From the NCBI GenBank assembly GCA_963692465.1, contig OY829943.1, positions 417,935 through 481,934 of the forward strand: a DNA stretch of 64,000 nucleotides. The letters are read 5' to 3'. The stretch is from Prolixibacteraceae bacterium. Its GTDB lineage: Bacteria; Bacteroidota; Bacteroidia; Bacteroidales; Prolixibacteraceae. A program made the position numbers and the translations under genes. Positions 384 to 21,844 of this stretch are shown here, piece after piece; the first letter of the stretch is position 1, and each line of letters begins with the position of its first letter. Under the pieces are notes generated by a model that saw nothing but the letters and a program-made list of their open reading frames with translations, did no database searches and was not told the origin of the DNA.

Positions 384-446
384 TTTTTTGCCCTCTCTTT
401 ATACTTCTTTTCTGTTTTTCCAATAGGTGGTTGACCGGACGCTTAC
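1..446 (+). mobile_element. IS66-family insertion sequence, right-hand end only (the element continues upstream of the window)
   Basis: The transposase C-terminus (CDS 1..383) is followed 63 nt after its stop by GGTGGTTGACCGGACGCTTAC, ending at 446. Read inward on the minus strand this is GTAAGCGTCCGGTCAACCACC, the GTAAGCG-type terminal inverted repeat characteristic of IS66-family ends. Confidence 0.75.
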
Positions 447-490
447 TGGATTTCAACAAAACTAAAAAAACGCACTTACACAATTACAAA

Positions 491-1537: not shown

Positions 1538-1617
1538 CGATTTCAATAAAGTACGTCTTTTTACAAAAGTCCATTATTTCCATAAAAAAGCATATAATTC
1601 AACAATAAATTTTTCCA

Positions 1618-2832: not shown

Positions 2833-2855
2833 TACACAACTTTATCAAATACATC

Positions 2856-3881: not shown

Positions 3882-4314
3882 TATTCCTGAAATCATTAAT
3901 GGTGGAATATTCTCTGATAATAGGGGTGATATTGCATACGTAAATGGCTTTAACTTCGAAGGAGTAAAACGTTTCTATATAATAGAACATCCTGATAGTT
4001 CTGTTATCAGAGCATGGCAATATCACAGGATTGAGAAAAAATGGTTCTACGTGGTACAAGGTTCTTTTTGTATAGCGTGGGTTAAAGTTGATAATTGGGA
4101 AAATCCATCTCCTAATTTAGCTGTAGAATTCAAAATCTTAAATGCCTCTGAAAGTGAAATCATTTCCATTCCTGCTGGTTATGCAAATGGATTAAAAGCA
4201 TTAGAGCCTAATTCTAAAATCATAGTTTTTTCGGATATGGATGTTGAAACATCCATTAAGGAAAAAATTCGATTTGATAAAAATATGTGGTTTAACTGGG
4301 AAAATATTAAATAA
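3865..4314 (+). CDS. Small cupin-fold protein, WxcM/FdtA-like (putative nucleotide-sugar isomerase/epimerase)
   Basis: 149 aa. It overlaps the fnlA stop by 17 nt and abuts the next start. It has the pattern DNRGDI...VKRFYII...IRAWQYH...WFYVVQGSF...ISIPAGYANG, typical of the small sugar-cupin family. Confidence 0.6.
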   Translation: MKTPNNIPEIINGGIFSDNRGDIAYVNGFNFEGVKRFYIIEHPDSSVIRAWQYHRIEKKWFYVVQGSFCIAWVKVDNWENPSPNLAVEFKILNASESEIISIPAGYANGLKALEPNSKIIVFSDMDVETSIKEKIRFDKNMWFNWENIK

Positions 4315-5429: not shown

Positions 5430-5439
5430 ATAAACAATT

Positions 5440-7775: not shown

Positions 7776-8881
7776 GGAATCTTTATTATCCTCTTCTTTA
7801 ATCGATTACAAATAAAATTAAATTTTGAAATAACAGAAGGTAAAGGATCTCTTTTAATATAATAAAAAGAATTCACAACAAATTCACTCAAACTATCATC
7901 TTTTCTTTGGAAAAAGCTTCTAAAATACGCAGTCACACTCATATAATATTTATAATCATATTGGGGAATTTTAAAAAATCTATTTTGAGAAGATAATAAG
8001 TTAAAGTACGGAAAATTTACCCCAACAGATAACGATCCTAAAAGAGAAGCCCAATAACGAGGATTAATTTCAATCACCTTTATTTGTTTTTCCTTTTCAT
8101 CAAATAATAAATCAATGTGAGCAATTCCCGTCCAATTTAATTTATACATTAGCCCTTTGACTACATCTAAAAGATCTTGATTAAAAAGAAATTGGACACT
8201 AGAAGCTGGCAAGAATCTTGACTTTTTTATCACCCCACGCTGAATTGTATATGCTAATATTTCTCCGTGTCGACACAACACGCTACAATCAATATCATAT
8301 CCATAAATATATTGCTGAATTACATACCGCTTAGCAGAATTACTATAGGAATCTATTTCCTGTAGTAATTCTGCTTTCGTATTATAAAGTCGAATTCCCT
8401 CACCTCCGCTACCCTGAGTTGGTTTAATCAAAACAGGGAAAAAGGTATCTTCAAGGTTAGTTGCTTTTTCTCTCTCTAATAAAACAGTTTTAGGATGAGG
8501 AATTTTATTTTTCCAATTAAATTCAGCGAATAATGCTTTATCAGAAGCAATTTGGAAACTATCCTCATCTGGAATTGAAATAATTAATTCTAATTTTTCA
8601 AGGGTGTTTTTATTCTGTATAATAAATTGGATTCCCTTTTCCGTTACAGGTATTAGAACCGCACTTCTATTTTTAGATGCGATTTCCTTAATGCAAGCTA
8701 AACAGTCAGTTTCATTTTTCTTATAGAAAAAGAACTTGCAATAACGAGAAAACCGAATTGCCGGATATTTCAGAGAAGATAAAATATATACGTCCAGGTC
8801 TACCCTTTTTGATAGACATGTAATAACATTCAATGCAAAATTATTTTCTCCATCAGGAATAATGACAATTTTCTTTTTCAT
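7742..8881 (-). CDS. ATP-grasp domain enzyme (COG3919-like), copy 1
   Basis: ORF 7742..8896; the Met at 8881 (MKKKIVIIPDG) is preferred. It has the ATP-grasp blocks FPVLIKPTQGSGGEGI, DIDCSVLCRHGEILAYTIQ and IKVIEINPRYWASLLGS. It is a paralog of 9988..11151. Confidence 0.75.
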   Translation of the reverse strand: MKKKIVIIPDGENNFALNVITCLSKRVDLDVYILSSLKYPAIRFSRYCKFFFYKKNETDCLACIKEIASKNRSAVLIPVTEKGIQFIIQNKNTLEKLELIISIPDEDSFQIASDKALFAEFNWKNKIPHPKTVLLEREKATNLEDTFFPVLIKPTQGSGGEGIRLYNTKAELLQEIDSYSNSAKRYVIQQYIYGYDIDCSVLCRHGEILAYTIQRGVIKKSRFLPASSVQFLFNQDLLDVVKGLMYKLNWTGIAHIDLLFDEKEKQIKVIEINPRYWASLLGSLSVGVNFPYFNLLSSQNRFFKIPQYDYKYYMSVTAYFRSFFQRKDDSLSEFVVNSFYYIKRDPLPSVISKFNFICNRLKKRIIKIPYLYSSNNLHK

Positions 8882-9142
8882 TAGTCGTACCCGCAATGTT
8901 TATTCATGAAAATTCAGAGAGGGACAAAATTATGAATATATCCGAATAACAACAACTCTGTAGCAAAGAATTTATAGATAAGAAGCTCCTTTTACTAATT
9001 AAATCTATCGGTTCGTGGGATTAATCTGATACTGAGTAAACTTATATGGCATTAAATTTCATAAGAGAATTTAACACGCAGGATTGTAAAATTGGAATGA
9101 TCTTTGCCATGTAAATATTAGACAAAAAAGATATATATTAAG

Positions 9143-9946
9143 ATGAAATTAGACAAAAAAATTATTCGCACATTATTCTTTTTGCTTTTACTTTTTTTAA
9201 TTCAAGTTAAGGGATCTTCTGCTGTCTCCGATACCATAAGAGTACTCTTTATTGGGAACAGTTATATATACGTTAATGATTTACCCTCGTTATTAAAGGA
9301 AGTTGCATCATCCGATGGAAAAGTTATTATCTCCGAACAAGACACTCCGGGTGGGAGTACTCTTGAAGGACACTGGAAATCAGAAATTCCTCAAAAGCTA
9401 ATAAAAGAAGGAGGTTGGAACTACATGATTTTGCAAGAACATAGTCAACGTCCCTCAATGCCAATTGAAAGCGTGAATCAATTAGTTTTCCCATTTGTTC
9501 ACAATCTGGACAGTCTATTTAAAGCATTTAATCCTACGGGAAAAACAATATTTTACATGACATGGGGTAGGAAAAATGGAGATTCCTCAAGATGTAAAGA
9601 ATTGCCACTAGTGTGTACTTATCAAGGCATGGACGACCTCACTCGCGAACGTTATCTCATGATGTCCGAACAAAACAAAGCATTAATTTCGCCAGTGGGT
9701 GTTGTTTGGCGACATTTAAGAGAAACTAATCCCGAAATTGAACTCTACATGAGTGATGAAAGCCATCCTTCAATAAATGGTTCATATGCAGGAGCATTGT
9801 GCTTTTATACGGTTATAACGCAAAAAGACCCCACTCTTATTTCATTCAACTCGACAATTGACCCTACTATGGCTAATATCATTAAAATGGCAGTTAAAAA
9901 AGTTGTTTATGAGCATCTAGATCAATGGAATATTGGACGATATTAG
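9143..9946 (+). CDS. Secreted SGNH/GDSL-like hydrolase (DUF4886-like), copy 1
   Basis: It has a signal peptide (LFFLLLLFLIQVKGSSA), block I VLFIGNSY (Ser nucleophile context), block V SDESHPS (D-x-x-H) and MTWGRKNGDS. It is a paralog of 11371..12414. Confidence 0.65.
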   Translation: MKLDKKIIRTLFFLLLLFLIQVKGSSAVSDTIRVLFIGNSYIYVNDLPSLLKEVASSDGKVIISEQDTPGGSTLEGHWKSEIPQKLIKEGGWNYMILQEHSQRPSMPIESVNQLVFPFVHNLDSLFKAFNPTGKTIFYMTWGRKNGDSSRCKELPLVCTYQGMDDLTRERYLMMSEQNKALISPVGVVWRHLRETNPEIELYMSDESHPSINGSYAGALCFYTVITQKDPTLISFNSTIDPTMANIIKMAVKKVVYEHLDQWNIGRY

Positions 9947-9987
9947 GTATATGAGTAAAATTCTCTAAAGTTAAAATCATCATAATT

Positions 9988-11151
9988 TTAACTTTTCTGC
10001 TTAACCTTTTGTCCAGGTTCCATTTGCAAGTCAGCAATGTCCTTTTTTAAAATACTCTTCAAACAACGATAGACTGTTTTTGATTTTGAAAAAACAAAAG
10101 GCAATGGGTCTATTATAATGTAGAATAATGATGTTTTAACTTTTCCTTCTATGTTATTTCTCTCTTTTATCTTTTTAAAGCTACATTTTAAAAAGGACAA
10201 ACTGTCAACGTAACAATTAAATTTATACTTTGGCTCAGTAAAAGGAACATTGACAATAGATAAATACAATAACTGAGGAAAATTTACTCCAACAGACAGT
10301 GAACCTAACAACGAGGCCCAAAAACGAGGATTAATTTCAATAACTTTTATCTCTCCATTTTCTTCATCATAACGAAGATCAATATGAGCGACCCCATTCC
10401 AATTTAGCTTATGCATTAATTCACTTACCACCTTTAAAGTTTCCTGATCAAAGAGAAACTTTATAGTAGAAGACGGCATAAATTCGGATTTTTTCGTTAT
10501 TCCTTGTTGAATAGTATAAGCTAAAATTTTCCCGTCCTTACAAAGAACACTACAGTCAATATCAAACCCTTTAATATATTGCTGTGCGATATATCTTTTG
10601 TTAATTATCCCCTCTGACGCAATAAACTCAAGCAAATTCATTTTAGTATTAAAAAACATTATTCCTTGTCCATTGCTACCCTGAGTTGGTTTAATAAGTA
10701 CTGGAAAAGAAATATTAGAATTAGCAATATTCTTATCCACTGGGATAGTATACGGATGAGGTAAATTATTTTGTTTACTGAATTTGGCGAATAATAATTT
10801 ATCAGAGGCAATATAAAAAGAGTCAATAATAGGAAGAGACGTAAATATCTTTAATTGGTCTAACTTTTCTTTATGTTTATAAACGAACAGGGTTCCTTTT
10901 TCCTGCAATGGGAAAAGGATGATTCTTCCATCTCCTCTTTCCCTAGAAATCGCTATAATGTGATTCAATAAAAATCCTTCATTTTCGACAAAGCAGAAAT
11001 TTTTACAATATCTAGAAAATCGAACATTTGGAAATTTGACATTTGAAAAAAGATATATTTCTATTCCCTCTGTTTTTGATAAACCCGTAAGTACGCTTAA
11101 AGCAAACCCACTTTCACCATCTGGAATAATAATTATATCGTTACTTTTCAT
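9988..11151 (-). CDS. ATP-grasp domain enzyme (COG3919-like), copy 2
   Basis: 387 aa. It has the same conserved blocks as copy 1 (FPVLIKPTQGSNGQGI, DIDCSVLCKDGKILAYTIQ, IKVIEINPRFWASLLGSLSVGVNFP). Confidence 0.75.
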   Translation of the reverse strand: MKSNDIIIIPDGESGFALSVLTGLSKTEGIEIYLFSNVKFPNVRFSRYCKNFCFVENEGFLLNHIIAISRERGDGRIILFPLQEKGTLFVYKHKEKLDQLKIFTSLPIIDSFYIASDKLLFAKFSKQNNLPHPYTIPVDKNIANSNISFPVLIKPTQGSNGQGIMFFNTKMNLLEFIASEGIINKRYIAQQYIKGFDIDCSVLCKDGKILAYTIQQGITKKSEFMPSSTIKFLFDQETLKVVSELMHKLNWNGVAHIDLRYDEENGEIKVIEINPRFWASLLGSLSVGVNFPQLLYLSIVNVPFTEPKYKFNCYVDSLSFLKCSFKKIKERNNIEGKVKTSLFYIIIDPLPFVFSKSKTVYRCLKSILKKDIADLQMEPGQKVKQKS

Positions 11152-11370
11152 TTCTAATAAATTTAATCTGTTTTTACCTTTAAATATTCAATTTCAAAGG
11201 GAAGGTAGGTTAAAAAGGGGGGAGCTATATCTGAAATTCAAGCAACTGTATGAATCTATTTAATAAACAAAAGGAATCCCTCACTTAGTGTATAAAGCTT
11301 TTTCTTAAAAAAAACAATTTTCCTTATTTTCGATTGTTGAAATTTGACTGTACGAATGTAATTAAAGAAG

Positions 11371-12414
11371 ATGAAAAATTTATTCCTTGTATTTGGTGCA
11401 CTATTCTGTTTCTGCTGTTGCACAGACTATCTATCAGGACAGGAGTTCAACAACCCAAGAGTTTCCCAAGACACAATAAGGGTATTGTTTATTGGAAATA
11501 GCTATACGTATACGAATGATCTTCCTCTATTATTAAAAAAAATTGCATCATCTGATGGAAAAACTATTATAACAGAACAAGATACCCCAGGAGGATGCAC
11601 CTTAGAAGGTCACTGGAATTCAGGAGTACCACAAAAGTTGATAAAAAAAGGCAATTGGGATTATATGGTTTTACAAGAACATAGTCAACTTCCTTCTGAA
11701 CCATTGAATGGATTTAATAACAAAGTATTACCTTTTGTAGAAAAGCTTAACAGTCTTTTTAAAAAACAAAATCAAAAAGGGAAGACTATTTTATATATGA
11801 CATGGGGAAGAAAAAACGGAGATTCTGATCGCTGCGGCAAATGCCCAGACGTCTGTTCATATGAAGGAATGGACAGCCTAACTCGTGCTCGTTATTTAAT
11901 ATTAGGAGATAAAATCGAATCATATATTTCACCTGTTGGCGCCATATGGAGATACATTCGAAACAAACATCCAGAAATCGAACTTTATAGCAGTGACTGT
12001 AGTCATCCTTCAATAAATGGATCTTTTGCCGGTGCATTAAGTTTTTATACTATAATTACACAAAAGAATCCTTCTAAAATAGTCTATAACACTTCAATTT
12101 CACCTGCTATTACATCAATGATAAAAGAGGCAGTTGAGAAAATTGCATACGACAGCTTGTATTACTGGAATGTTGGAATAACTGCCTTTTCTTATAAAGA
12201 AAGAGCAAACAATCTGGTCTCCTTTCGTAATCTTTCACGTAATTACGATTCGCTACTTTGGAATTTTGGTGATGGACAAAATTCAACAGAAAAAAATCCA
12301 TCGCACCAGTATCCAAAGAAAGAAGTATACAGAGTCACTCTCTACATAACGAAGAATAACAAAACCAGCTGTTTCTCATCAGATATTTCTACTATTCTTC
12401 GTCGATTAAGATAA
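11371..12414 (+). CDS. Secreted SGNH/GDSL-like hydrolase with C-terminal PKD-like domain, copy 2
   Basis: It has a signal peptide, VLFIGNSY, SDCSHPS and MTWGRKNGDS, as in copy 1. It also has about 80 extra C-terminal residues, WNFGDGQNSTEKNPSHQYPKKEVYRVTLYI (PKD-type motif). Confidence 0.65.
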   Translation: MKNLFLVFGALFCFCCCTDYLSGQEFNNPRVSQDTIRVLFIGNSYTYTNDLPLLLKKIASSDGKTIITEQDTPGGCTLEGHWNSGVPQKLIKKGNWDYMVLQEHSQLPSEPLNGFNNKVLPFVEKLNSLFKKQNQKGKTILYMTWGRKNGDSDRCGKCPDVCSYEGMDSLTRARYLILGDKIESYISPVGAIWRYIRNKHPEIELYSSDCSHPSINGSFAGALSFYTIITQKNPSKIVYNTSISPAITSMIKEAVEKIAYDSLYYWNVGITAFSYKERANNLVSFRNLSRNYDSLLWNFGDGQNSTEKNPSHQYPKKEVYRVTLYITKNNKTSCFSSDISTILRRLR

Positions 12415-12419
12415 CCCTT

Positions 12420-13205
12420 ATGCCAATTGAGATGGAAAATAAGCTGACGAAACGGGATATAATATCAAGAGAATTTCAGATAAAGAAATTCAATGTAAAA
12501 CACATGGTCCCGACGGTCACTCTGACAATAAACGTTGAAGCTGATAATTTGATTCAACGTAAAAAGGATATCAACGGTAATGCTAATTCACCGCACCTGA
12601 CAGTTACTCATATCATTCTGAAAGCGGTTGCTGAGGTCATTGTTAACTATCCGTTGTTATACAGCTTCTTTGATAGGCACAAGATCGTCCCCAATGCCGA
12701 GTTAATTTTGAATATTCCCGTTGCCATAGAAAATCATGTCGAATATGTCTCCATTCATAATGCCGAATCAAAATCATTGGAGGATATTGCAAGTGAATGC
12801 TCGGCTGAGATAGAAAAAATCAATAGGCACGAAGGGGAATTCATGAAATTGTTAGAAAAGATGGATAGGATGTCGGTATTACAAAAAATAGGATTTTACA
12901 TCTTTGAGCTAAAAGGTGCAGTTCCCTTCTTACGAAAATACTACGGTAATTTCCCTGTTTCAAACATCGGTTCTTTTAAGGTCAACAGTGGAACTCTGGC
13001 ATTGTCACAACCGATGGTTTCATCTCTTTGTATTGGCCGCATTACGTCTGTCCTACAAAAGGAGAATGGGAACTTGATTGACAAACTTATCTTGCCATTG
13101 AGTGTTTCATTTGATCATCGGGCCCTTGACGGGGCTTATGCCGGGGCTTTTCTGAATGAATTAAAAGAACATTTGGAAAAACCGGTATTGTCTGAAATTG
13201 AATGA
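12420..13205 (+). CDS. Stand-alone 2-oxoacid dehydrogenase E2-type (CAT-fold) acyltransferase catalytic domain
   Basis: 261 aa. It has the catalytic motif SFDHRALDGAYAGAFLNELKEHLEKP (DHR-x-x-DG) at the C-terminus. There is no lipoyl or subunit-binding domain in the ORF. It starts 5 nt after the stop of 11371..12414. Confidence 0.75.
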   Translation: MPIEMENKLTKRDIISREFQIKKFNVKHMVPTVTLTINVEADNLIQRKKDINGNANSPHLTVTHIILKAVAEVIVNYPLLYSFFDRHKIVPNAELILNIPVAIENHVEYVSIHNAESKSLEDIASECSAEIEKINRHEGEFMKLLEKMDRMSVLQKIGFYIFELKGAVPFLRKYYGNFPVSNIGSFKVNSGTLALSQPMVSSLCIGRITSVLQKENGNLIDKLILPLSVSFDHRALDGAYAGAFLNELKEHLEKPVLSEIE

Positions 13206-13232
13206 GTAAGTGAGTTTTCCGGCAAAATCGTT

Positions 13233-13262
13233 ACAAATTACCAATATGAGTGTATTGGATTT
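13233..13262 (+). repeat. Copy of the last ~30 nt of the ATPase CDS 16604..17803
   Basis: ACAAATTACCAATATGAGTGTATTGGATTT here versus ACAAATTACCAATATGGTGTATAGGATTT at 17766..17793. Confidence 0.7.
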
Positions 13263-13265
13263 GTG

Positions 13266-13289
13266 AAAGCCTATTCGTAGGCTTTTTTT
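13266..13289 (+). terminator. Rho-independent terminator after the glycan tailoring operon
   Basis: Stem AAAGCCT / AGGCTTT with a 6-nt loop, followed by a T-run. Confidence 0.7.
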
Positions 13290-13301
13290 GTTCCTCTATG
13301 T

Positions 13302-13334
13302 TGTCTGATAATTATTGACATGGATAAAATTTCA
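13302..13334 (+). repeat. 33-nt core repeat, copy 1 (TGTCTGATAATTATTGACATGGATAAAATTTCA)
   Basis: An identical 33-mer occurs at 16284..16316, and a copy with 2 substitutions at 18069..18101. All three are in the same orientation. Confidence 0.85.
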
Positions 13335-13341
13335 AGTTGCC

Positions 13342-13662
13342 ATGAAAAACAACAAAGTAATTGACAGATTAAATCAAATCGTTTCTTCTGAACCATCCAA
13401 ATGGCTTGATGATGAAAAAAGAAGAAAAGAGAATCGCGATTGGTTGAATAATTCAACTAAAATCGCCATACGAATACTACGGGCTATAAGAGCTCAAAAA
13501 GAGACGAGAAATATGTCACAAAAAATGCTCGCTGACATAATGGGGGTTAGTCAACAATATATTAGCAAAATAGTAAAAGGGCAAGAGAACCTTTCTCTGG
13601 AAACAATCTGCAAGCTTGAAAAAGCTCTTGGAATTGTTCTTGTTGAGATTCCGAAACTTTAG
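13342..13662 (+). CDS. XRE-family helix-turn-helix transcriptional regulator
   Basis: ORF 13315..13662; the ATG at 13342 (MKNNKVIDRL) is preferred. It has the HTH_3 motif MSQKMLADIMGVSQQYISKIVKGQENLSLETICKLEKALG. Confidence 0.8.
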   Translation: MKNNKVIDRLNQIVSSEPSKWLDDEKRRKENRDWLNNSTKIAIRILRAIRAQKETRNMSQKMLADIMGVSQQYISKIVKGQENLSLETICKLEKALGIVLVEIPKL

Positions 13663-13670
13663 AAGAAACC

Positions 13671-13713
13671 TGTCTCAATGGAATTATCTGTATCGCATGC
13701 TGAAATTGAGACA
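13671..13713 (+). promoter_or_regulatory. 9-bp inverted repeat between the XRE gene and the ATPase gene (operator or weak terminator)
   Basis: TGTCTCAAT (13671-13679) and ATTGAGACA (13705-13713) form a perfect inverted repeat with a 25-nt spacer. Confidence 0.35.
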
Positions 13714-13773
13714 ATGGAATCAGTTACAATTATTTTTGTAATTTTGTCTAAAAGCAAACAATAATATTACACC

Positions 13774-14826
13774 ATGATTAATCGGGTAAATATCAAAAAC
13801 TTTCAGATATTCGATAATTTTCAGATATCAAATTTCACTCCTGTAAATGTTATCATTGGCCGCAATGATTCAGGAAAAACCAGTTTGCTAAAAATACTTT
13901 ATACAGTTACGAAGTCGGTTGAAGAATTTGGTCTAAAGCAACAACATTCTCCCGAATCTTTTAAAAAAATTATCAGTAAAAAAATCCAAAATACGTTTAA
14001 TACACATAAAACCGGGATTGGAAGTCTTGTAAAACGCGGGACAGAAAAGTTATTTTTTGACCTCACTTTTGATAATAACCAGAGCATTCATTTTTCATTT
14101 ACTGACCGAGCAACGGAGAACATTGTTGACTGTTCTGCATCAATCAATAACGTTGATAATTGTTTCAATTCCCTTTTCATCCCGGCAAAGGAGGTTCTTT
14201 CTATTTTCAAAGCAATAGAAACTTCTCGTGGCAGTTTATTTGTCCCTGATTTTGATGATACTTACCTTGACCTTGTTAATGCTCTAAAAATTCCAACGCA
14301 ACAAGGGCGGGTCGAAACAAATCTTCTAAATGTGAATAATATCCTTTCCCATCTTTTTGAAGGAGAGATTCAACAGGTTAACGAGGGATTCGATATCGAT
14401 TTTGTATTTAAAAAGGGAAAGTACGACTTCGCGATGCCGGTAACCGCTGAAGGAATTAAAAAAATTGGTGTTATTACAACACTTATCAGAAATCACCGAT
14501 TAAATAAAAATACAATCCTTTTCATGGATGAACCGGATACTAATTTACATCCGGATGCAATACGTCAGCTATGCGAAATTATTTATGATATCAGTAAAGC
14601 TGGAATTCAGATTTTCCTTTCTTCCCACAATTATTTCCTTATAAAGCAACTCTCTATCATTGCCCGCCGTGAAAAACAATCAATGAATTGTCTCTCTCTG
14701 TGTAATAATGAAGAGCAAAAAACTCAATATTTAATCGCTGATCTTAAAGACGGTATGCCGTCTAATTCAATTATTGACGAAGCATTGAAAATGTTAGATG
14801 ATGAAACTGACATTGATTTAAAATAA
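13774..14826 (+). CDS. ABC/SMC-type P-loop ATPase (AAA_15/AAA_21-like)
   Basis: 350 aa. Walker A VIIGRNDSGKTSLL, signature-like TAEGIKK, Walker B ILFMDEPDTNLHP, H-loop-like FLSSHN. No fused nuclease domain is recognisable. Confidence 0.75.
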   Translation: MINRVNIKNFQIFDNFQISNFTPVNVIIGRNDSGKTSLLKILYTVTKSVEEFGLKQQHSPESFKKIISKKIQNTFNTHKTGIGSLVKRGTEKLFFDLTFDNNQSIHFSFTDRATENIVDCSASINNVDNCFNSLFIPAKEVLSIFKAIETSRGSLFVPDFDDTYLDLVNALKIPTQQGRVETNLLNVNNILSHLFEGEIQQVNEGFDIDFVFKKGKYDFAMPVTAEGIKKIGVITTLIRNHRLNKNTILFMDEPDTNLHPDAIRQLCEIIYDISKAGIQIFLSSHNYFLIKQLSIIARREKQSMNCLSLCNNEEQKTQYLIADLKDGMPSNSIIDEALKMLDDETDIDLK

Positions 14827-14833
14827 TTATCTC

Positions 14834-15199
14834 ATGTCTATTAGCGAAAGTGGTATAACTCTTAATTTTCCGGATAACAATTATTTTCGATTTCAAAATT
14901 GCAAGGCATATCAAAAACTTTCTAATATTCATTTCAATTTTAAAGATAAAAAACCAACAAAAAACTGATCTAAACTTCATTAAAGATCAATATAAAGCGA
15001 TGTTCAGACCTTATGAAAAGCTTTTCAGCATTAAAAGTACAGTAATAAGTCATGATAAGGCTATTGAAAGATTTCAATGGGTAGAATAATATCTACATCC
15101 GATGGAATGGTCTGGATAAAGGGGCATGTAATCGGTAATTACAAATGGTTCTTCATCACTTCAGGCGATGTTTTAGCCGAAAGTTCCAAAAATAAATAG
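14834..15199 (+). pseudogene. Possible frameshifted partner gene of the ATPase (three consecutive reading segments)
   Basis: Segment 1 is 14834-14968 (MSISESGITLNFPDNNYFRFQNCKAYQKL...). Segment 2 continues in another frame from the A-rich run at about 14948-14965 to the stop at 15087-15089 (...DLNFIKDQYKAMFRPYEKLFSIKSTVISHDKAIERFQWVE). Segment 3 is in the third frame, to the stop at 15197-15199 (...DGMVWIKGHVIGNYKWFFITSGDVLAESS). Confidence 0.35.
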
Positions 15200-15298
15200 T
15201 TGGGTATTCGGAAATTAAATTTTCAACAATAACTGTAAAAATTAAACATTGATTTAATTCCATTGTTATTTTTGTATAGAAAAAAAATAAACTGAGCT

Positions 15299-15775
15299 AT
15301 GCCTACATCTTTTACTTCAACAGATTCTCAAGTTTGTATGTGGTTTAACAAATTGATTTCGTCTCTCGTAGGTGATCAAATTGAAATAGAATCAGGGATT
15401 GCTAATAAAGAAAAAAAAGATTTTTACGGGGCGGCTATGAATAGCGATTATTATAGTTTAAGTAGTAATGTTCGCTTACAATCAACACAATTTTTTATTT
15501 CAAGCATGCTAAAAGATTACATTGAAGAAATAAAAAAAAGGAATGCTCAACCGCTTTCTCTTTCATTGAAATTATCTAATTCGAAGATTCTTGCCTGGGC
15601 TATTACAAAAGATGATGACGAAGAAACAGAGAATAAGTTGTATTTGGCTGCTGCTGCAATAAATGCAAAATATTATAAAGAGGGATTTTATATTAGTACA
15701 ACGATTGTTGAAGAGTCGGATAATTACAATGCTCCCGCTCAATATCAACTTCTATTTAGCAATGGCCAACTTTAA
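15299..15775 (+). CDS. Hypothetical protein (158 aa), first gene of an overlapping pair
   Basis: A clean ORF with no motif I recognise. Its stop overlaps the next start by 14 nt. Confidence 0.6.
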   Translation: MPTSFTSTDSQVCMWFNKLISSLVGDQIEIESGIANKEKKDFYGAAMNSDYYSLSSNVRLQSTQFFISSMLKDYIEEIKKRNAQPLSLSLKLSNSKILAWAITKDDDEETENKLYLAAAAINAKYYKEGFYISTTIVEESDNYNAPAQYQLLFSNGQL

Positions 15776-16250
15776 TGAACATTTAAATCAAGCACAAAGC
15801 AATCTTTCTTTTTTACGGGAGATTAATAGTTTATCTAACCATTATTGGGATTGGCAGGTTACTACATGTTTTTATGTTGCGGTTCACCTCATTAATGCTT
15901 ATATCGCGGATAAATCTAACATGCATTATCGTAGTCACGAGGATGTAGCCCAGGCAATAAATCCGTATAATCAATTGTCTCCATTAAAAGTGACTGATGA
16001 AGTATACGTATCATATTGTAAACTTCAAAATTTATCTCGTCGGGCCCGTTATTTAATAAATGACAACATGAAAAATCGAGAAACAAATGGGCACTTTACT
16101 TCTGATAAACACTTTATTAAAGCATTAAAAAGTTTAGATAGAATATTAGATTTCTTCATCAAAAAATACCCTTCAGAATCTTTTGACACATTAGATTTAC
16201 ACTGCATGGAAGGAAAGAAAACATCTTTTGCCTATTTCCAGATTTTATAA
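15762..16250 (+). CDS. Hypothetical alpha-helical protein (162 aa), second gene of the overlapping pair
   Basis: ORF 15663..16250. The ATG at 15762 (MANFNEHLNQAQSNL) is preferred because upstream of it the frame runs inside the previous CDS. It contains one R-x4-H spacing (RETNGH). An internally deleted ghost copy lies at 17938..18020. Confidence 0.6.
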   Translation: MANFNEHLNQAQSNLSFLREINSLSNHYWDWQVTTCFYVAVHLINAYIADKSNMHYRSHEDVAQAINPYNQLSPLKVTDEVYVSYCKLQNLSRRARYLINDNMKNRETNGHFTSDKHFIKALKSLDRILDFFIKKYPSESFDTLDLHCMEGKKTSFAYFQIL

Positions 16251-16363
16251 AATGTAAGTGTTAATCTTTTTGTTGTTTAGAAATGTCTGATAATTATTGA
16301 CATGGATAAAATTTCAGAAAAAAATGTGAACTCCGATATTGTTGGCACTGAAAATGGCACTGT
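16235..16363 (+). repeat. ~130-nt direct repeat, copy 1 (3' end of CDS 15762..16250 plus downstream sequence; contains core copy 2 at 16284-16316)
   Basis: It aligns by eye, with a few substitutions and 1-nt indels, to 18020..18163. Confidence 0.85.
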
Positions 16364-16603
16364 TGCGTTCTTCGTTAACGGAGGAGTAATGATATCTTGA
16401 TATTAAATTTGTTGAGAAGGGAACAAGAAACGGAAAGAAATTTTTTATTGAAAGTACCAATGTAAGCAGGTTCTTCAGACAATATCACATGAACAAATAC
16501 AGCAAAAAAATATCAATAACGCTGCATGCAAACAGCATTTTTAAACTAATATTGCTGAACACAAACAGCAAATAAGTATATTTGCCACATTAATACAACA
16601 AAT

Positions 16604-17803
16604 ATGGAAACTCTATTTGCTAAACAAGATCGCTTGCTAAAACTGACTTCTACAAAAATAGTTCGTGAACTGATGAAACAGATTCATTGGGAAACTCAAC
16701 TGATCGCAATCCGAGGAGCACGAGGTGTAGGAAAAACAACACTTATGTTGCAATATATCAAACTAAACTATCCGACTTATAGTAGGGAAGTTTTGTATTG
16801 TACGATGGATTCTGTATTCTTCTCAAACCACAGTTTATTGGATTTAGCAGATACTTTTTATAAAAATGGTGGCAAGAGATTATTTTTAGATGAAGTTCAT
16901 AAATACCCTACATGGAGCAAGGAGATAAAGGAAATCTATGATATGTACCCTGATCTGCAAATCGTATTCAGCGCATCATCACTTCTGCAAATTCTAAACG
17001 GGGATGCTGATTTGTCCCGTCGATGTATCCCATACACGATGCAGGGACTTTCTTTTCGGGAATTCTTCCTGTTCTATAAGAATATTGAACTACCGATATA
17101 TTCGTTAAAAGATATTTTATCTTTCCCTGAGAAACTATGTGCTGAAGTAAACGATAAATGTCATCCATTGCCTTTCTTCAAAGAATATCTCCAATATGGA
17201 TATTATCCTTTTTATTTGAGAAATCAATTGGACTATTACACCAGCATAGAGCAGATAACGAACTTTATTATAGAAACAGAATTGACATTGCTGTGTAAGG
17301 TTGATGTGGCAAATGTACGTAAGCTGAAAGCATTGTTAGGAGTATTGGCAACTTCGGTGCCTTTCGAAGTGGATATTTCTAAATTGGCAACAACAATAGG
17401 AGTACACCGGAATACAGTGATTTCTTATTTGTATGATATGGATAAAGCTGAATTGATAAATATGTTATTTTCAGATCTTTTGTCGGTAAAGAAAATGCAG
17501 AAGCCGGATAAGATTTATTTAGATAACCCCAATTTGCTTTATGCGTTGGCTTCACAGCCTGTTAAAAAAGGAACAGTCCGAGAAACATTTGTTGTCAACC
17601 AATTAGCATATTTGCATCAGATAGAGTATGGAAAAACAGCCGGTGATTTTAAGGTGGATGGTCAATATTTTTTTGAAGTAGGCGGTGAAAACAAGACATA
17701 TAAACAGATTGCAGATGTGCCTGATTCATATATTCTGGCTGACAATATAGAAACTCCTTATCATCACAAATTACCAATATGGTGTATAGGATTTCTTTAT
17801 TAA
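16604..17803 (+). CDS. AAA+ ATPase with DUF4143-type C-terminal domain (COG1373 family)
   Basis: 399 aa. Walker A IRGARGVGKTTLM, Walker B RLFLDEVHKYPTW, and a C-terminal winged-helix/DUF4143-like region. Confidence 0.8.
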   Translation: METLFAKQDRLLKLTSTKIVRELMKQIHWETQLIAIRGARGVGKTTLMLQYIKLNYPTYSREVLYCTMDSVFFSNHSLLDLADTFYKNGGKRLFLDEVHKYPTWSKEIKEIYDMYPDLQIVFSASSLLQILNGDADLSRRCIPYTMQGLSFREFFLFYKNIELPIYSLKDILSFPEKLCAEVNDKCHPLPFFKEYLQYGYYPFYLRNQLDYYTSIEQITNFIIETELTLLCKVDVANVRKLKALLGVLATSVPFEVDISKLATTIGVHRNTVISYLYDMDKAELINMLFSDLLSVKKMQKPDKIYLDNPNLLYALASQPVKKGTVRETFVVNQLAYLHQIEYGKTAGDFKVDGQYFFEVGGENKTYKQIADVPDSYILADNIETPYHHKLPIWCIGFLY

Positions 17804-17823
17804 TATCCTATCAAGCGTTTTAT

Positions 17824-17879
17824 TTAAAAGAACGTTTGGAAAAACCGGCATTATCTGGAATTGAATAAGTAAGTTTTCC
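17824..17879 (+). pseudogene. Ghost of the 3' end of an E2-type acyltransferase gene
   Basis: It still reads LKERLEKPALSGIE-stop, versus LKEHLEKPVLSEIE-stop at the end of CDS 12420..13205 (nt 13161-13220). The flanking GTAAGT..GTTTTCC is also shared. Confidence 0.75.
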
Positions 17880-17937
17880 ATAAGCATTCAGAGACGTACT
17901 CCCCATTCACAGATAGATCGAATAATTAATGTAGCCA

Positions 17938-18020
17938 CATTATTGGGATTGGCAGGTTACTACATGTTTTTATGTTGCAATTCACCTCATTAATGCTTAT
18001 ATCGCGGATAAATCTAACAT
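17938..18020 (+). pseudogene. Ghost (5'-truncated, internally deleted) of a second copy of CDS 15762..16250
   Basis: It matches 15839..15922 with 2 substitutions. It then joins directly to the sequence homologous to 16235 onward, so about 0.3 kb of the gene is missing. Confidence 0.8.
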
Positions 18021-18163
18021 TTCCAGATTTCATGAAATATAAGTGCTAATTTTTTTGTTGTTTAGAAATGTCTGATAATTACTGACGTGGATAAAATTTC
18101 AAAAAAAATGTGAACTCTGATATTGTTGGCACTGTAAACGACACTGTAAATGGCACTGTAAAT
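18020..18163 (+). repeat. ~130-nt direct repeat, copy 2 (contains core copy 3 at 18069-18101), ending in three tandem 12-mers
   Basis: It aligns to 16235..16363. The tail is GGCACTGTAAAC GACACTGTAAAT GGCACTGTAAAT (18128-18163), where copy 1 has only GGCACTGAAAAT GGCACTGT. Confidence 0.85.
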
Positions 18164-19446
18164 TATTTAATAGCATACAATGGAACGTTTGTCATCCATG
18201 ATTCTTCCTTGTAATCGGACAACGAGGTCCGGATGGCTTTTGAAGGTTTATACTTTTCACAAAACAACCTGAAACTTTTGGCGTTCAGGTTTTCACCCGA
18301 TTTTACCTCAATGGGGATAACTTCCCCTTGGTCCTGAATGACGAAATCGACTTCCGCCGTACTCCGATCATTTGTCCAATATCCAATATAGCGTTCACTG
18401 TCCAGACGCAATTGCTGCATCACGTACTGCTCTGTGAGTGCCCCTTTAAACTCGGTAAAGATTCCATCTCCCTCAATGATCGTCCGAACGTTAAGCCCAG
18501 CCATGGCACCAAGCAAGCCTACATCGTGCAGAAATAATTTAAATACGGAAACATTCTGGTAAGCGGCAAGCGGGATTCCTGGTTTTGATACCCGATAGCA
18601 TTTCAGCAATAAGCCACAATCCGTCAGCCACTGGATAGCTAACTCAAAGTCTTTGGATCGAGCTCCCTCTCTGATTACTCCATATACAAATTTTTTATTC
18701 TCTTTAGCTAATTGCGACGGGACACTTTGCCAAACCATCCGGATGCGGGGAACGGTTTCATTAGGTGCATGCTTGGAAAAATCACCTTCATAGGAGTTAA
18801 GTATCCTGTTCTGAATGCGGCGAACCAGTTGCCAATCGCGAGTTTGAACAAAAGCATCCACCACTTCGGGCATTCCCCCCACATAGAAATAATAGCGGAG
18901 ATATTCTTTAAGTTTCTCCGTAAAAATAGAAAGGACGCTCCAGTTCTTAGCCGTTAGTGCTTCAACCAATGCCTTTTCATTCTGAGATAACAGGAATTCG
19001 GAGAACGAAAGCGGACGCAAATCCAAAAAATCAACCTTCCCGACAGGAAAAGAAACTTGACTATGCAACCCCATTCCAAGCAAGGAACCGGCTGCAACCA
19101 CATGGTATTGGGGTGCTTTCTCACAGAAATATTTCAGAGAGGTAACACCACGTTCTGCTGACTGGATTTCGTCTAAAATAATCAATGTATCTTCGGCTGT
19201 TATTGTGGTTTGAGCATGTATCTGAAGCACTGTTATTATCCGTTCAATATCGAAATCGTTAGTGAAAATAGTTTGCAATGCAGGGGTTTCCTCAAAATTC
19301 ACATAGATGAATTTAGCATACGAAGTACGACCAAACTCCTGCAAGAGCCATGTCTTTCCTACCTGTCGCGCACCTCTTACAATCAGTGGCTTACGGAATT
19401 TATCTTCCTTCCACTTCTTTAAACTGACAATTGATTCCCGATACAT
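18163..19446 (-). CDS. AAA+ ATPase with DUF4143-type C-terminal domain (COG1373 family)
   Basis: 427 aa. Walker A VRGARQVGKTWLL, Walker B LIILDEIQ, and a C-terminal PD-(D/E)xK-like/DUF4143 region (EVDFVI...IPIEVKSG). Confidence 0.8.
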   Translation of the reverse strand: MYRESIVSLKKWKEDKFRKPLIVRGARQVGKTWLLQEFGRTSYAKFIYVNFEETPALQTIFTNDFDIERIITVLQIHAQTTITAEDTLIILDEIQSAERGVTSLKYFCEKAPQYHVVAAGSLLGMGLHSQVSFPVGKVDFLDLRPLSFSEFLLSQNEKALVEALTAKNWSVLSIFTEKLKEYLRYYFYVGGMPEVVDAFVQTRDWQLVRRIQNRILNSYEGDFSKHAPNETVPRIRMVWQSVPSQLAKENKKFVYGVIREGARSKDFELAIQWLTDCGLLLKCYRVSKPGIPLAAYQNVSVFKLFLHDVGLLGAMAGLNVRTIIEGDGIFTEFKGALTEQYVMQQLRLDSERYIGYWTNDRSTAEVDFVIQDQGEVIPIEVKSGENLNAKSFRLFCEKYKPSKAIRTSLSDYKEESWMTNVPLYAIK

Positions 19447-19479: not shown

Positions 19480-19535
19480 ACACTTTTATCAGGATAAAAA
19501 TGTAAACAGACCACACTTTTATCAAGATAAAAATG
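19480..19535 (-). promoter_or_regulatory. Two 23-nt direct repeats, each with an internal palindrome, just upstream of ATPase gene 18163..19446
   Basis: ACACTTTTATCAGGATAAAAATG (19480-19502) and ACACTTTTATCAAGATAAAAATG (19513-19535), period 33 nt. Each contains TTTTATC..GATAAAA. Confidence 0.45.
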
Positions 19536-19842
19536 ATATACCTCCCAATGTAATCCAAATCGGAACTCCTTATCGCTACTAATTACCAGTATACGTATTG
19601 AATTTATATATTTGGATATCAAATTAAATCTGGTTATGAAGAATAACAAAAGCTTGCCCCTTCTGAATTGTTTTTAATCTGAATTTATGCAACAGGATCT
19701 GTTAACACGACGTATAGTATGGATACAGTTCGTTGCTCAAGGTTGTCAATTCGTAAATTGTCTTTACTCTTTAATACAATCCAAAGAAAAAGGGGAAGAT
19801 TGAAATCTATTTGATGATTACCTTTAATGAAAAATTCATCAG

Positions 19843-21027
19843 ATGCCTCTAATTCTAAATATTACAATATGCTTTGGATTGGCTGCAATGCTTGTCTTTT
19901 TCTGTATTCCTACAATTATTGGAGTAGCAAGGAAAAAAAAGCTCTATGATGTTCCAAACGCAAGAAAAGTAACGACTCAGGTGATTCCTACATTAGGAGG
20001 GGTTGCTATATTCCTGGGGTTCGTTATTGCAGTCACGGTCTCCCTATACAATTATACATTCCTTGAATTTCGTTATATACTAACGGCCTTAACCATCATG
20101 CTCTTTGTCGGTTTAAAAGATGACCTGATGGATATCTCGGCATCGAGTAAATTTATCGGTGAATTTGTTGCTGCTACGATGGTGTGCGTTCTGGGTAACA
20201 TTCGCTTCACTGATTTACATGGTTTATTAGGAATTCATGCATTAAATCCGTTCTTCAGTATTGTATTATCGCTGCTTTTTATTGCGTTTATTGCCAATGC
20301 AATTAACCTGATTGACGGAATTGACGGACTTGCCTCAGGAATTGTTATAGTGGCTTGTGCAACACTCGGCACTTGGTTCTATCTCTCCGGAAATAATACT
20401 TATGCTCTCATGAGCTTTGCGTTAGTGGGTGCATTGTGCTCATTTTTTCTCTACAATGTCTTCGGGAAAAGCAACAAGATCTTTATGGGCGATACGGGGT
20501 CTTTAATTCTGGGGCTCATTCTGTCGGTACTCATTATTCGTTTTAACGAATTAAATATAGTGGGTGGAAAGCCTTACTCGGTTCCTGCTTCTCTTGCCAT
20601 TTCCCTGGGTATTGTTATTCTTCCGGTCATTGATACACTTCGGGTTATGATTCTAAGAATGATCCACGGAAAGTCTCCATTTAAAGCGGATCGAAATCAT
20701 ATTCATCACATGCTCCTTGATCTTAATTTTACGCATCTGCAGGCTACGTTAATATTAGTCGGGGCAAATCTGCTCTTTACAATTGCCTCTTTTGCTCTTC
20801 GGGACCTTGGAACAAATATACTTCTGTTCATTAATGTTGCCGCCGGATTTTCATTGGCCTTTATGCCTTCTTTGATTTTGAAACGGCGGGCCGAAAAATC
20901 AATCGGTAACGAAATGAGACTAACCGATGAAGAAATGAAAGAAATTACGAAACTAATAAATGACTCTTCCTCATTGGTTATCACAAAGAAACATCATCAA
21001 CCGACCAGTATAGGTGGCACCAACTAA
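19843..21027 (+). CDS. wecA: Polyisoprenyl-phosphate N-acetylhexosamine-1-phosphate transferase (WecA/WbpL, MraY-like GT4 family)
   Basis: 394 aa, polytopic. Motifs VGLKDDL, NAINLIDGIDGLASG, MGDTGSLILG, DRNHIHH. Confidence 0.85.
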   Translation: MPLILNITICFGLAAMLVFFCIPTIIGVARKKKLYDVPNARKVTTQVIPTLGGVAIFLGFVIAVTVSLYNYTFLEFRYILTALTIMLFVGLKDDLMDISASSKFIGEFVAATMVCVLGNIRFTDLHGLLGIHALNPFFSIVLSLLFIAFIANAINLIDGIDGLASGIVIVACATLGTWFYLSGNNTYALMSFALVGALCSFFLYNVFGKSNKIFMGDTGSLILGLILSVLIIRFNELNIVGGKPYSVPASLAISLGIVILPVIDTLRVMILRMIHGKSPFKADRNHIHHMLLDLNFTHLQATLILVGANLLFTIASFALRDLGTNILLFINVAAGFSLAFMPSLILKRRAEKSIGNEMRLTDEEMKEITKLINDSSSLVITKKHHQPTSIGGTN

Positions 21028-21052: not shown

Positions 21053-21844
21053 TTACGCACTCAATATCCGTTGTTCCTTCATCCTTTTTGAAAATTCGAC
21101 AATTTGTTCCCGGGAAATTGAGCAACAAAATTCTTCTCCATTCTTGGTCAAAACACAGACTTTTTTGGAGATGTTTATCTTTGACAAATAGGTGGAATTA
21201 ATAATACAAGAACGCTTAGTTCGGATAAACGTATTCTTATCAAGTTTTGGGTAGATTCGCCCCAAATTGAGGGTGACCATCTCTTTTTGCTCGTTTCCTA
21301 AAAAGAAAATACTATAATTCCCTTCTGCTTTAATATAAATGATATCCTGCGGTTCAATGAGTACAAATCCATTCAAATTATGAAACGCAATCTTATTTAA
21401 TATCTGGGGAGAACAAAATCCATCGTTTTTTGAGGTTGATGCTTTCGTCTTGTTCTTTTCGTCTGCCCGTTTCTGCAATAGAACAGAAATCCGGTCCAAT
21501 AATGAGATTAAAGTCGTTTTGTCCGTTATCGGATCTGGGTCAAACTCTCTAAATCCCAGGAAATACTGGACATAGGGATTTTCATTAATAAACTCGACGG
21601 TTTTTTCGGAAGAAAAGCCTTCCTTGCACTTTACAATGACCGCTCCAATAACCAATTTTATTTCCTGATCGGGAAGTAAAAGATCGGGATAAAAAAGACT
21701 GTTTTTTTTATACAGATATAAAAGTCTTTTCCATGGAATTCGTTGTGCTAATAAAATCCAACGGTTATTTTCATCCAGCTTTTTCCCAAAATGGACGATG
21801 GAACTTTTAAAAACCAAGGGGTTTATCTGACTTTGTGTATACAT
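21053..21844 (-). CDS. LytTR DNA-binding protein fused to an IS5/IS4-type transposase N-terminal (DUF772-like) region
   Basis: Residues about 25-120 (NNRWILLAQRIPWKRL...VIGAVIVKCKEGFSSEKTVEFINENPYVQYFLGFREFDPDPITDKTTLISLLDRI) follow the DUF772 transposase N-terminus pattern. Residues about 155-255 (FVLIEPQDIIYIKAEGNYSIFFL...FIRTKRSCIINSTYLSKI) form a LytTR domain. There is no DDE domain. Confidence 0.7.
   Translation of the reverse strand: MYTQSQINPLVFKSSIVHFGKKLDENNRWILLAQRIPWKRLLYLYKKNSLFYPDLLLPDQEIKLVIGAVIVKCKEGFSSEKTVEFINENPYVQYFLGFREFDPDPITDKTTLISLLDRISVLLQKRADEKNKTKASTSKNDGFCSPQILNKIAFHNLNGFVLIEPQDIIYIKAEGNYSIFFLGNEQKEMVTLNLGRIYPKLDKNTFIRTKRSCIINSTYLSKINISKKVCVLTKNGEEFCCSISREQIVEFSKRMKEQRILSA

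Follow-up and report, generated by a model that had tools for sequence, protein, structure and literature searches.

O-antigen and capsule clusters are hypervariable loci that are exchanged by recombination in their conserved flanks. We describe here a comparable locus in a 64,000-nucleotide stretch of a Prolixibacteraceae genome (GenBank assembly GCA_963692465.1, contig OY829943.1, positions 417,935 to 481,934 of the forward strand; hereafter the window, numbered from its first letter). A polysaccharide-biosynthesis cluster with glycosyltransferases, epimerases and ATP-grasp enzymes occupies positions 431-13205, and its last gene, coding for an acyltransferase, forms the left border of a 6.6-kb islet of defence-type genes that is closed on the right by a wecA-like gene (Table 1). 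The islet contains two ATPase genes of the PDC-S01 type (A and B), three copies of a 33-nt core and several fragmentary copies of gene ends, further referred to as ghosts. We consider that these repeats are probably the scars of recombination and decay at the downstream junction of a hypervariable polysaccharide locus, left by duplication or joining of alleles and by repeat-mediated deletion in which no dedicated recombinase was involved. It is directly observed that the locus is polymorphic, that one indel is bounded by a perfect 33-bp repeat, that the relics derive from diverged alleles and that ancestry changes at the left edge of the islet.

The comparison with polysaccharide-locus junctions, such as those of O-antigen and cps loci, rests on the position of the site at the 3' end of the cluster and beside an initiating transferase gene, on the contrast between alleles diverged by 7–8% and a flank that is 98–99.5% identical, and on the relic of the gene end of an earlier allele. 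In contrast to such junctions, our locus carries defence-type cassettes and a head-to-tail unit and has no framing insertion sequence (IS), only an IS5 fragment downstream. The content of the islet also resembles that of defence islands: HEC-02, two PDC-S01 genes and a HEPN-like pair lie between conserved genes, are present or absent depending on the strain and are in several cases decayed. Judged by its genes, the islet thus appears to fit the notion of a defence island or hotspot, in which several unrelated defence-type genes lie between conserved genes and the content varies among strains; it differs in having no integrase, transposase or prophage carrier, the turnover taking the form of repeat-bounded deletions and partial duplications.

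In public data the locus has few close relatives. Two further sequences found in the 90%-identity cluster of ATPase A lead to two more haplotypes, and together with the window these make three haplotypes from independent sequencing projects. In the contigs L188 and L189 a 2,982-bp module is absent (13335-16316): L188 positions 1-643 correspond to window 12693-13334 (92.7% identity) and positions 611-2488 to window 16284-18163 (98.3%), the two matching blocks overlapping by precisely the 33-nt core. The order there is acyltransferase, ATPase-end ghost (b), terminator, one core, segment d, ATPase A, acyltransferase ghost (a'), HEPN-like ghost (HEPN'), core' and d'. In L190 and L192, which belong to a third project, positions 1-773 correspond to window 12436-13208 and 787-2760 to window 15147-17121, the acyltransferase gene (93.1%) being followed after 13–16 nt by the region of the 158-aa/HEPN gene pair (99.5%). 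The segment missing from this haplotype has the imperfect direct repeat AATCG(G)T(AA)TTACAAAT at both of its ends in the window. Unitigs of L188, L189, L190 and L192 run unbroken through the core, while those of the window strain break there, which in a k=31 graph means that the core is single-copy in the former strains. Structural variants at these junctions, which would be expected if alternative cassette arrangements had repeatedly recombined at one site, therefore do exist, and this suggestion of an earlier sequence-only reading is supported by them: one haplotype has a single core and the other joins the acyltransferase gene directly to the 158-aa/HEPN pair. No variant devoid of the ATPase A cassette (16604-17803) was seen among the haplotypes found.

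The same haplotypes allow the ancestry of the parts to be read. The three live acyltransferase alleles differ pairwise by 7–8%, whereas the right part of the islet is 98.3–99.5% identical, and in L188 the switch of identity falls at ~13272, 30 nt to the left of the core. The window and L188 have the same a' ghost; over 45 positions, it shows 3 differences from the live allele of L188, 4 from that of L190 and 5 from that of the window. The proposal that this ghost represents a diverged allele was therefore well founded: a' is a fourth allele, and the live allele of L188 shares its PALSGIE ending. Tandem copies of a 12-nt unit (GGCACTGTAAAT or GACACTGTAAAT) number two at 16340-16363 and three at 18128-18162 of the window, and two (650-690) and at least four (2430-2496) in L188, where, in addition, segment d is d'-like for ~40 nt and then turns into d again. 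This mosaic and the variation in unit number appear to indicate gene conversion and slippage among the copies. In L191 an IS with a DDE_Tnp_1 transposase (741-1623) interrupts ATPase A after codon ~173 (equivalent to window 17121), and the break is common to six contigs from several samples (the L190/L191 lineage).

Most of the repeats had been listed in the sequence-only reading, the five observations of which are all confirmed, and a sensitive comparison of 13–20 kb against the whole window, of the kind proposed there, returned precisely the same pairs. The 33-mer (TGTCTGATAATTATTGACATGGATAAAATTTCA) is exact in its first two copies and has two mismatches in the third, all three on the + strand as reported, with no further copy at up to 3 mismatches in the 64 kb and 0 expected by chance. 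The end of the HEPN-like gene with the adjoining core and segment d (16234-16363) recurs at 18019-18147 with 90.8% identity and one gap, or up to ~18159 if a difference in the 12-nt tandem units is allowed. An internal piece of the same gene (15840-15922) recurs at 17938-18020 with 98% identity, or 92% when extended to 15825/17921, and is fused straight to the former repeat with the equivalent of 15923-16233 missing, so that an internally deleted ghost gene is indeed present. The acyltransferase end (13161-13211) matches 17824-17874 at 90%, the ghost reading LKERLEKPALSGIE-stop; by eye it extends back to ~17813 (AF-Y-LKE versus AFLNELKE), ~9 nt past the stop codon of ATPase A. The ATPase end at 17760-17794 matches 13227-13262 (89%), and a third ghost of this kind, b'' at 19556-19612, is ~76% identical to 17743-17801 and has protein-level support, as it reads IGTPYRY*LPVYVLNLY against IETPYHHKLPIWCIGFLY. 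The core is close to the XRE start codon, as had been claimed, its last base lying 7 nt ahead of the ATG at 13342. A 41–57-nt segment "e" separates a' from the HEPN ghost and has no detectable similarity to anything in unit 1 (see below). A 32-aa open reading frame (ORF) that starts within core copy 2 (MDKIS...) has no conserved counterpart in the other two copies and was treated as non-coding.

The marker order that had been described as permuted is better read as two collinear head-to-tail units and one extra ATPase-end stub. Unit 1 runs from a (13161) through the HEPN-like gene (15762), core 2 (16284) and d (16317) to the end of ATPase A, b (17743-17803), and unit 2 repeats this order in the same orientation with a' (17813), HEPN' (17921), core 3 (18069), d' (18102) and b'' (19556); the adjacency of b and a', ~9 nt past the ATPase A stop codon, is then simply the novel junction between the units. 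Three of the marker pairs, namely a, the HEPN fragment and the HEPN-end/core/d segment, show homogeneous divergence between the units (chi-square p = 0.24, pooled 9.4%). The 158-aa gene is missing from unit 2, the HEPN-like gene has lost 20 codons at its start and 311 nt internally, and of the A-type ATPase only 19 codons are left, its place being occupied by ATPase B with its own upstream region. Unit 1 has an additional piece between a and the 158-aa gene, composed of the ATPase-end stub, the terminator, core 1, XRE, HEC-02A and the HEC-02B stub. Nearly all junctions lie no further than 3–20 nt from a start or stop codon, which is expected if deletions were tolerated only up to functional neighbours.

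A plausible history would begin with a tandem segmental duplication, or with the concatenation of two alleles during exchange of the neighbouring polysaccharide genes, achieved by a single crossover or by homology-facilitated illegitimate recombination. The second copy would then have been whittled by deletions down to gene-end stubs, with its ATPase replaced by ATPase B, the stubs surviving because longer deletions would damage intact neighbours or their signals. The window-like arrangement would be the fullest one and both other haplotypes its deletion derivatives, the L188/L189 form having arisen when the perfect 33-bp direct repeats recombined or slipped against each other and the L190/L192 form through the shorter imperfect repeat. 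The core would in this case be a short repeat usable by the host recombination machinery rather than the site of a dedicated recombinase. The locus shares with known cases of tandem duplication followed by repeat-mediated deletion the head-to-tail units, the novel junction, the internal deletion of the redundant copy, the indel bounded exactly by a perfect 33-bp direct repeat and the conversion between copies. It differs from a recent in-place tandem duplication in that the copies are ~9% diverged, which is more than expected and makes import of a second allele equally possible, and in that the b/b'' pair is much older. Decay is evident in the HEC-02B stub, the orphan XRE gene and the ATPase A cut by an IS in L191.

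Several observations weigh against this history. The b/b'' pair is 24% diverged, and homogeneity is lost once it is included (p = 0.004); with an identity of 76% it is significantly more diverged than the other markers, so that not all of the pattern can be the outcome of one duplication. No difference separates core copies 1 and 2, where ~3 are predicted from the 9.4% divergence (P of none = 0.04), and the proposed history does not explain core copy 1 or the adjacent b ghost and terminator. The core-bounded indel may also have had the opposite direction, since insertion of a 2,982-bp circle into a lone core leads to identical sequences; the L190 junction keeps no clean copy of the short repeat, and both other haplotypes are known from short contigs only. 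Finally, among eight copies of the core in three strains (including those at 13302, 16284 and 18069 of the window, 611 and 2394 of L188 and 1923 of L190) there are five substitutions, all of them in the central TTGACA (positions 14–19), while the outer 13 and 14 nt are invariant and the adjoining sequence is ~9% diverged; this pattern hints that the outer parts may be constrained, for example as a promoter or operator.

The possibility that the repeats are assembly artefacts or chance similarities is negligible and has already been refuted. It has in its favour only the general risk of mis-assembly in repeat-rich DNA, whereas the divergence of the copies (76–98% identity) rules out collapse or duplication of reads, two assemblies are in agreement with each other and with the short-read unitigs, 0 chance matches are expected for the 33-mer, and the same ghosts are found in L188, which comes from another sequencing project. 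An independent long-read contig is colinear with the window at 99.98%, and the short-read unitigs of the same strain match it at 100% and break exactly at the repeats. The long-read contig (L003, from ENA) has three 1-nt insertions at the equivalents of window 19413, 20430 and 20547, all outside the repeats, that are probably consensus errors of that assembly; they split ATPase B and wecA into shorter gene calls.

The core is private to this locus as far as the searches reach. Its 26-mer had 0 matches in exact-pattern scans of genome, metagenome and viral contig collections, and no relatives with up to 8 mismatches were found in 2.4 Mb of related loci; it is thus not a generic high-copy repeat, the outcome that would have spoken against the sequence-only reading. 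With its flanks the core folds no better than shuffled sequences (z = 0.2 and −0.6) and forms no hairpin or dyad, no Rfam matches were obtained in the region, and a scan for sigma-70-type promoters gave no enrichment (27 sites versus 28.4 expected). GATAA is common to the two outer parts, where it has the same orientation and is not inverted. A resemblance to one half-site of the palindrome TTTTATC-AG-GATAAAA, found upstream of ATPase B, is seen in the right part of the core (GGATAAAAT). Two other assignments were given up: the core is not a conserved XRE leader, because the upstream regions of XRE homologues show nothing similar, and its resemblance to the 3' end of a Gp49/HigB-like gene (..GIID..) is weak and requires a 15-nt deletion.

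ATPase A has 77–79% amino acid identity to proteins of distant Bacteroidales, including Bacteroides cellulosilyticus, and 7,916 proteins match it at E <= 1e-60; as the flanking acyltransferase and wecA have no relatives above 53%, ATPase A has clearly undergone horizontal transfer. The 80 homologous ATPase loci fall into ~26 contexts, between which nucleotide similarity ends at the coding sequence apart from an upstream module. In this module a Bacteroidetes −7 box, TAnnTTTG, stands downstream of two GCTGT-N6-ACAGC palindromes. It is found in 44 of the 51 distinct upstream regions (L105-L184), the spacing of the palindromes being exactly 33 nt in 35 of the 51 and the box present in 48, while a double palindrome occurred in 24 of 2,000 control windows. 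The same module is seen in L093 (7890-7948) and L102 (6906-6962). In the window the palindromes lie at 16521-16536 and 16554-16569, 33 nt apart, with degenerate left half-sites, and are followed by TATATTTG at 16577-16584. The arrangement resembles a double operator and possibly serves autoregulation. The upstream region of ATPase B has an analogous layout, in which each of the two 23-nt repeats, 33 nt apart, carries TTTTATC-AG-GATAAAA.

Direct repeats formed by partial duplicates of neighbouring sequence bracket the ATPase in 9 of 22 loci, compared with 0 of 44 control intervals, when loci with full flanks and repeats of at least 80% identity are counted; the nine loci represent 3 of ~10 contexts. 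In the locus of the B. cellulosilyticus type the bracketing repeats are two copies of the neighbouring gene, one of them intact and the other decaying, and in some strains (L112, L115) the last 25 codons of the ATPase itself are kept upstream. An island from a peat-metagenome Bacteroidales (L093) has at least 4 fragments of a NAD-dependent epimerase gene between ATPase genes, one of them fused in frame to the N-terminus of an AbiEi_3 ORF. In L098, which comes from another sample, the repeat downstream of one ATPase is joined to the repeat upstream of another, a recombinant junction that would fit either a circle of 9.4 kb or a tandem copy. Local partial duplication with decay thus appears to be recurrent, though not universal, at the loci of this ATPase family. 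Beside A-type ATPases of human-gut Bacteroides, an AAA-ATPase_like/PDDEXK_9 gene (519 aa) and a 517-aa ORF vary by presence and absence. For the abundant and uncharacterised PDC-S01 ATPases these data provide a lead, namely a widespread subfamily that seems to travel as a minimal unit with paired palindromic operators and has partial duplicates of neighbouring genes at its flanks unusually often, which may be a starting point for studying the movement and regulation of candidate defence genes.

Some features of the core invite other explanations. It may be a promoter, operator or leader that serves XRE and HEC-02A in copy 1 and reads into d and ATPase A in copy 2, an idea that we regard as possible rather than probable and that is compatible with the history of duplication and deletion preferred above, as selection would preserve the core and its use in crossover would be incidental. 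The core ends 7 nt ahead of the XRE ATG, its outer parts are invariant in eight copies from three strains against ~9% in the flanks, a TTTG stands 18 nt upstream of TAATTATTG in the contexts of both copy 1 and copies 2/3 despite unrelated left flanks, and the imperfect dyad TGTC-N11-GACA (central ATAATTAT) could be an operator for XRE. However, the −7-like element departs from the Bacteroidetes consensus, of which ATPase A has a clean example upstream, copy 3 points into the 3' end of a gene running towards it, and the upstream regions of XRE homologues with 63–67% identity hold nothing core-like. The core could alternatively be an att-like site of a site-specific recombinase supplied in trans, in which case the XRE-to-HEPN unit of 2,982 bp would be a cassette capable of excision and integration and the three cores the junctions of accreted elements, as in tandem arrays of integrative and conjugative elements (ICEs) and their cis-mobilisable relatives (CIMEs). 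Copies 1 and 2 do match at 33 of 33 positions, with sharp bounds and unrelated flanks, but RecA acting on a perfect repeat would leave the same picture. The exact indel in L188 leaves a single core, and a site with invariant outer parts and a variable central hexamer loosely recalls arms and a spacer; the outer parts, however, are not inverted repeats of each other, and its folding is not unusual. The islet and its surroundings are free of integrase and recombinase genes: no gene between 431 and 32864 contains an integrase, transposase or recombinase domain except for the N-terminal IS5 fragment at 21053-21844. The absence of core relatives from three public collections and 2.4 Mb of related loci argues against a family of such sites. 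Copy 3 shares both flanks with copy 2, which is the pattern of duplication and not of accretion. Taken together, we consider a trans-acting recombinase very improbable. Similarly, a live acyltransferase on the left and its diverged last ~17 codons on the right of a 4.6-kb insert, in direct orientation, recall islands in gene 3' ends (tRNA/tmRNA, ICE/CIME), but there is no integrase, the ATPase-end pair has its ghost on the wrong side and the HEPN ghost includes internal gene sequence and not just an att-sized end. Integron cassettes are likewise promoter-poor gene-sized units in one orientation with a recurring short separator; here, in contrast, intI and attI are missing and the 33-nt core lacks the imperfect attC hairpin and exists in three copies private to the locus. 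In contrast to the invertible promoters and shufflons of Bacteroidales, the repeats are all direct, the only inverted pairs within 12–20 kb being weak (70–86% complementary, 20–30 nt). By these features the locus does not qualify as an integron, as an invertible promoter or shufflon or as an integrase-borne island.

The direct repeats that bracket ATPase A had been thought capable of deleting or swapping it, and a related explanation is that the A-type cassette, composed of the operator pair, promoter and coding sequence, is itself mobile and spreads between Bacteroidales by means of a circular intermediate carrying a piece of a neighbouring gene, a single crossover of which at the resident homologue would duplicate the homology and place a live gene and a diverged ghost such as a' on opposite sides. 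Such a scheme would account for the 77–79% identity of ATPase A in distant taxa while its neighbours reach at most 53%, for its close homologues in ~26 contexts with nucleotide homology between them stopping at the coding sequence and operator module, for the enrichment of bracketing partial duplicates around the gene and for the company of a' with a near-identical right part in both the window strain and L188; L098, too, would fit a circle or tandem copy bounded by ghost repeats. Nevertheless, about 7 of 10 contexts have no bracketing repeats, tandem duplication followed by decay gives the same pattern with no circle, the homology between a and a' is only ~60 nt, a circular form was never directly observed, and L098 is a single 8.5-kb metagenome contig. 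We therefore hold this explanation to be unlikely. Its bolder version, in which the A-type ATPase and its double-operator module make up a recombinase-free mobile cassette that spreads among Bacteroidales, is excised as a circle between ghost repeats and re-integrated by single crossover through a co-transported piece of the adjacent gene, every move leaving gene-end ghosts behind, with the 33-nt core pair as another such point, is decidedly doubtful. Scars of recombination and decay at a polysaccharide-locus junction remain our preferred reading, under which this is ordinary genome turnover and not a new machine, and current concepts are unchanged. The value of the locus is that of a clean sequence-resolved case in which a patch of defence genes was built up and torn down beside a surface-polysaccharide locus, with three haplotypes bearing repeat-bounded indels, a readable relic of an earlier allele and visible gene conversion between copies.

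Table 1. Features of the islet and of compared loci (window coordinates unless a locus is named)
Feature	Position	Strand	Match or remark
Acyltransferase, 2-oxoacid_dh-type, last gene of the polysaccharide locus	12420-13205	+	Pfam PF00198, 4.7e-31
Repeat a, acyltransferase 3' end and ~15 nt downstream	13152/13161-13220	+	
b ghost, last ~12 codons of an A-type PDC-S01 ATPase, frameshifted	13227-13262	+	89% to 17760-17794
Intrinsic-terminator-like hairpin and T run, 3' of the ATPase-end ghost	13265-13286	+	DNA fold z = −3.3
33-nt core, copy 1	13302-13334	+	
Orphan XRE/HTH_3 gene, 106 aa	13342-13662	+	Pfam 4.4e-15
HEC-02A, ABC-type ATPase (AAA_21/AAA_15), full length	13774-14826	+	PADLOC HEC-02A, 1e-101
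HEC-02B stub, 44 aa	14834-14968	+	PADLOC profile positions 5-34 of 182
158-aa gene, conserved partner of the HEPN-like gene	15299-15775	+	35% to the 161-aa gene preceding homologue P0248
HEPN-like gene, 162 aa, source of the HEPN-derived repeats (internal piece; gene end with core and d)	15762-16250	+	Weak Pfam HEPN match, 0.008
33-nt core, copy 2	16284-16316	+	
Segment d, with 12-nt unit (GGCACTGTAAAT-like) of variable copy number	16317-16363	+	
ATPase A upstream control module	16521-16584	+	Two GCTG-N8-CAGC palindromes and TATATTTG
ATPase A, PDC-S01 type (AAA_14 and weak DUF4143); last ~19 codons are repeat b	16604-17803	+	
a' ghost, diverged acyltransferase allele, last ~17 codons, stop and ~11 nt	17813-17879	+	
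Ghost HEPN-like gene, internal fragment joined to the gene's last 16 nt	17921-18035	+	
33-nt core, copy 3 (T14C, A19G)	18069-18101	+	
Segment d', three 12-nt units, ends 3 nt before the ATPase B stop codon	18102-18162	+	
ATPase B, second PDC-S01 ATPase (AAA_14 and DUF4143)	18163-19446	−	Pfam 1e-36 and 1.5e-26; PADLOC 8.6e-184
Two 23-nt palindrome-containing repeats (TTTTATC..GATAAAA), 33 nt apart, upstream of ATPase B	19480-19535		
b'' ghost, third A-type ATPase end, last ~19 codons, in-frame stop	19556-19612	+	~230 nt upstream of wecA
wecA-like glycosyl-1-phosphate transferase, right border of the islet	19843-21027	+	PF00953, 1.1e-36; TIGR02380, 3e-45
2,982-bp module: XRE, HEC-02A, HEC-02B stub, 158-aa gene, HEPN-like gene, one core	13335-16316	+	Bounded by cores 1 and 2
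Segment absent from L190/L192: b ghost, terminator, core 1, XRE, HEC-02A, HEC-02B stub	13231-15144	+	
Epimerase fragments of the peat-metagenome island	L093 1-66, 1510-1669, 4930-5170, 6990-7340, 9380-9447; L098 6604-6721		
Presence/absence comparisons beside A-type ATPases	L102 9956-11722 vs L103 9956-10063; L124 11298-13127 vs L138		

As to the individual genes of the islet, the XRE homologues have 124–153 aa and always lie between a Gp49/HigB-like gene and a ~145-aa gene, both of which are missing in the window. In the homologues with 63–67% identity (L083-L089) these form a three-gene module of a ~186-aa Gp49/HigB-like protein with an N-terminal extension, XRE and a ~145-aa protein, possibly a tripartite system of the toxin-antitoxin type. 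HEC-02 is reported to need both HEC-02A and HEC-02B, a NERD-like nuclease, for defence (bioRxiv 10.1101/2024.01.29.577857). HEC-02B is recognisable here over the first ~33 residues of a ~170–180-aa protein only, and no more of its remains were found downstream of the stub; with HEC-02A full length and HEC-02B a stub, the system is an incomplete remnant. The HEPN-like family comprises 607 representative homologues, and a Pfam HEPN match was obtained in 7 of 35 members. Together with the 158-aa gene it forms a conserved two-gene module, one homologue of which, with the same partner, lies beside phage tail genes.

PDC-S01 is an abundant candidate defence gene (PMC13356809), and DUF4143 belongs to the PD-(D/E)xK class of nuclease domains (PMC3424549). 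The two ATPases of the islet are only 24% identical to each other: ATPase B matches the PDC-S01 models of PADLOC at 8.6e-184 and has both Pfam domains, while ATPase A matches them at 6e-27, with a strong AAA_14 domain and DUF4143 below the Pfam cut-off. Exact-protein look-ups for the acyltransferase, XRE and ATPase A returned the same strain only, and none returned a record for the HEPN-like protein as delimited here. The acyltransferase has no homologue above 53% identity in a large protein collection, and the best relatives of wecA (at most 52%, in Prolixibacteraceae and Marinilabiliales-type genomes) have no islet genes nearby. On the other side of wecA, 25 nt downstream, lies an ORF on the − strand (21053-21844) in which a LytTR DNA-binding domain is fused to ~120 residues from the N-terminus of an IS5-family transposase (DUF772); it is probably a response-regulator gene the 5' part of which was replaced by an IS remnant.

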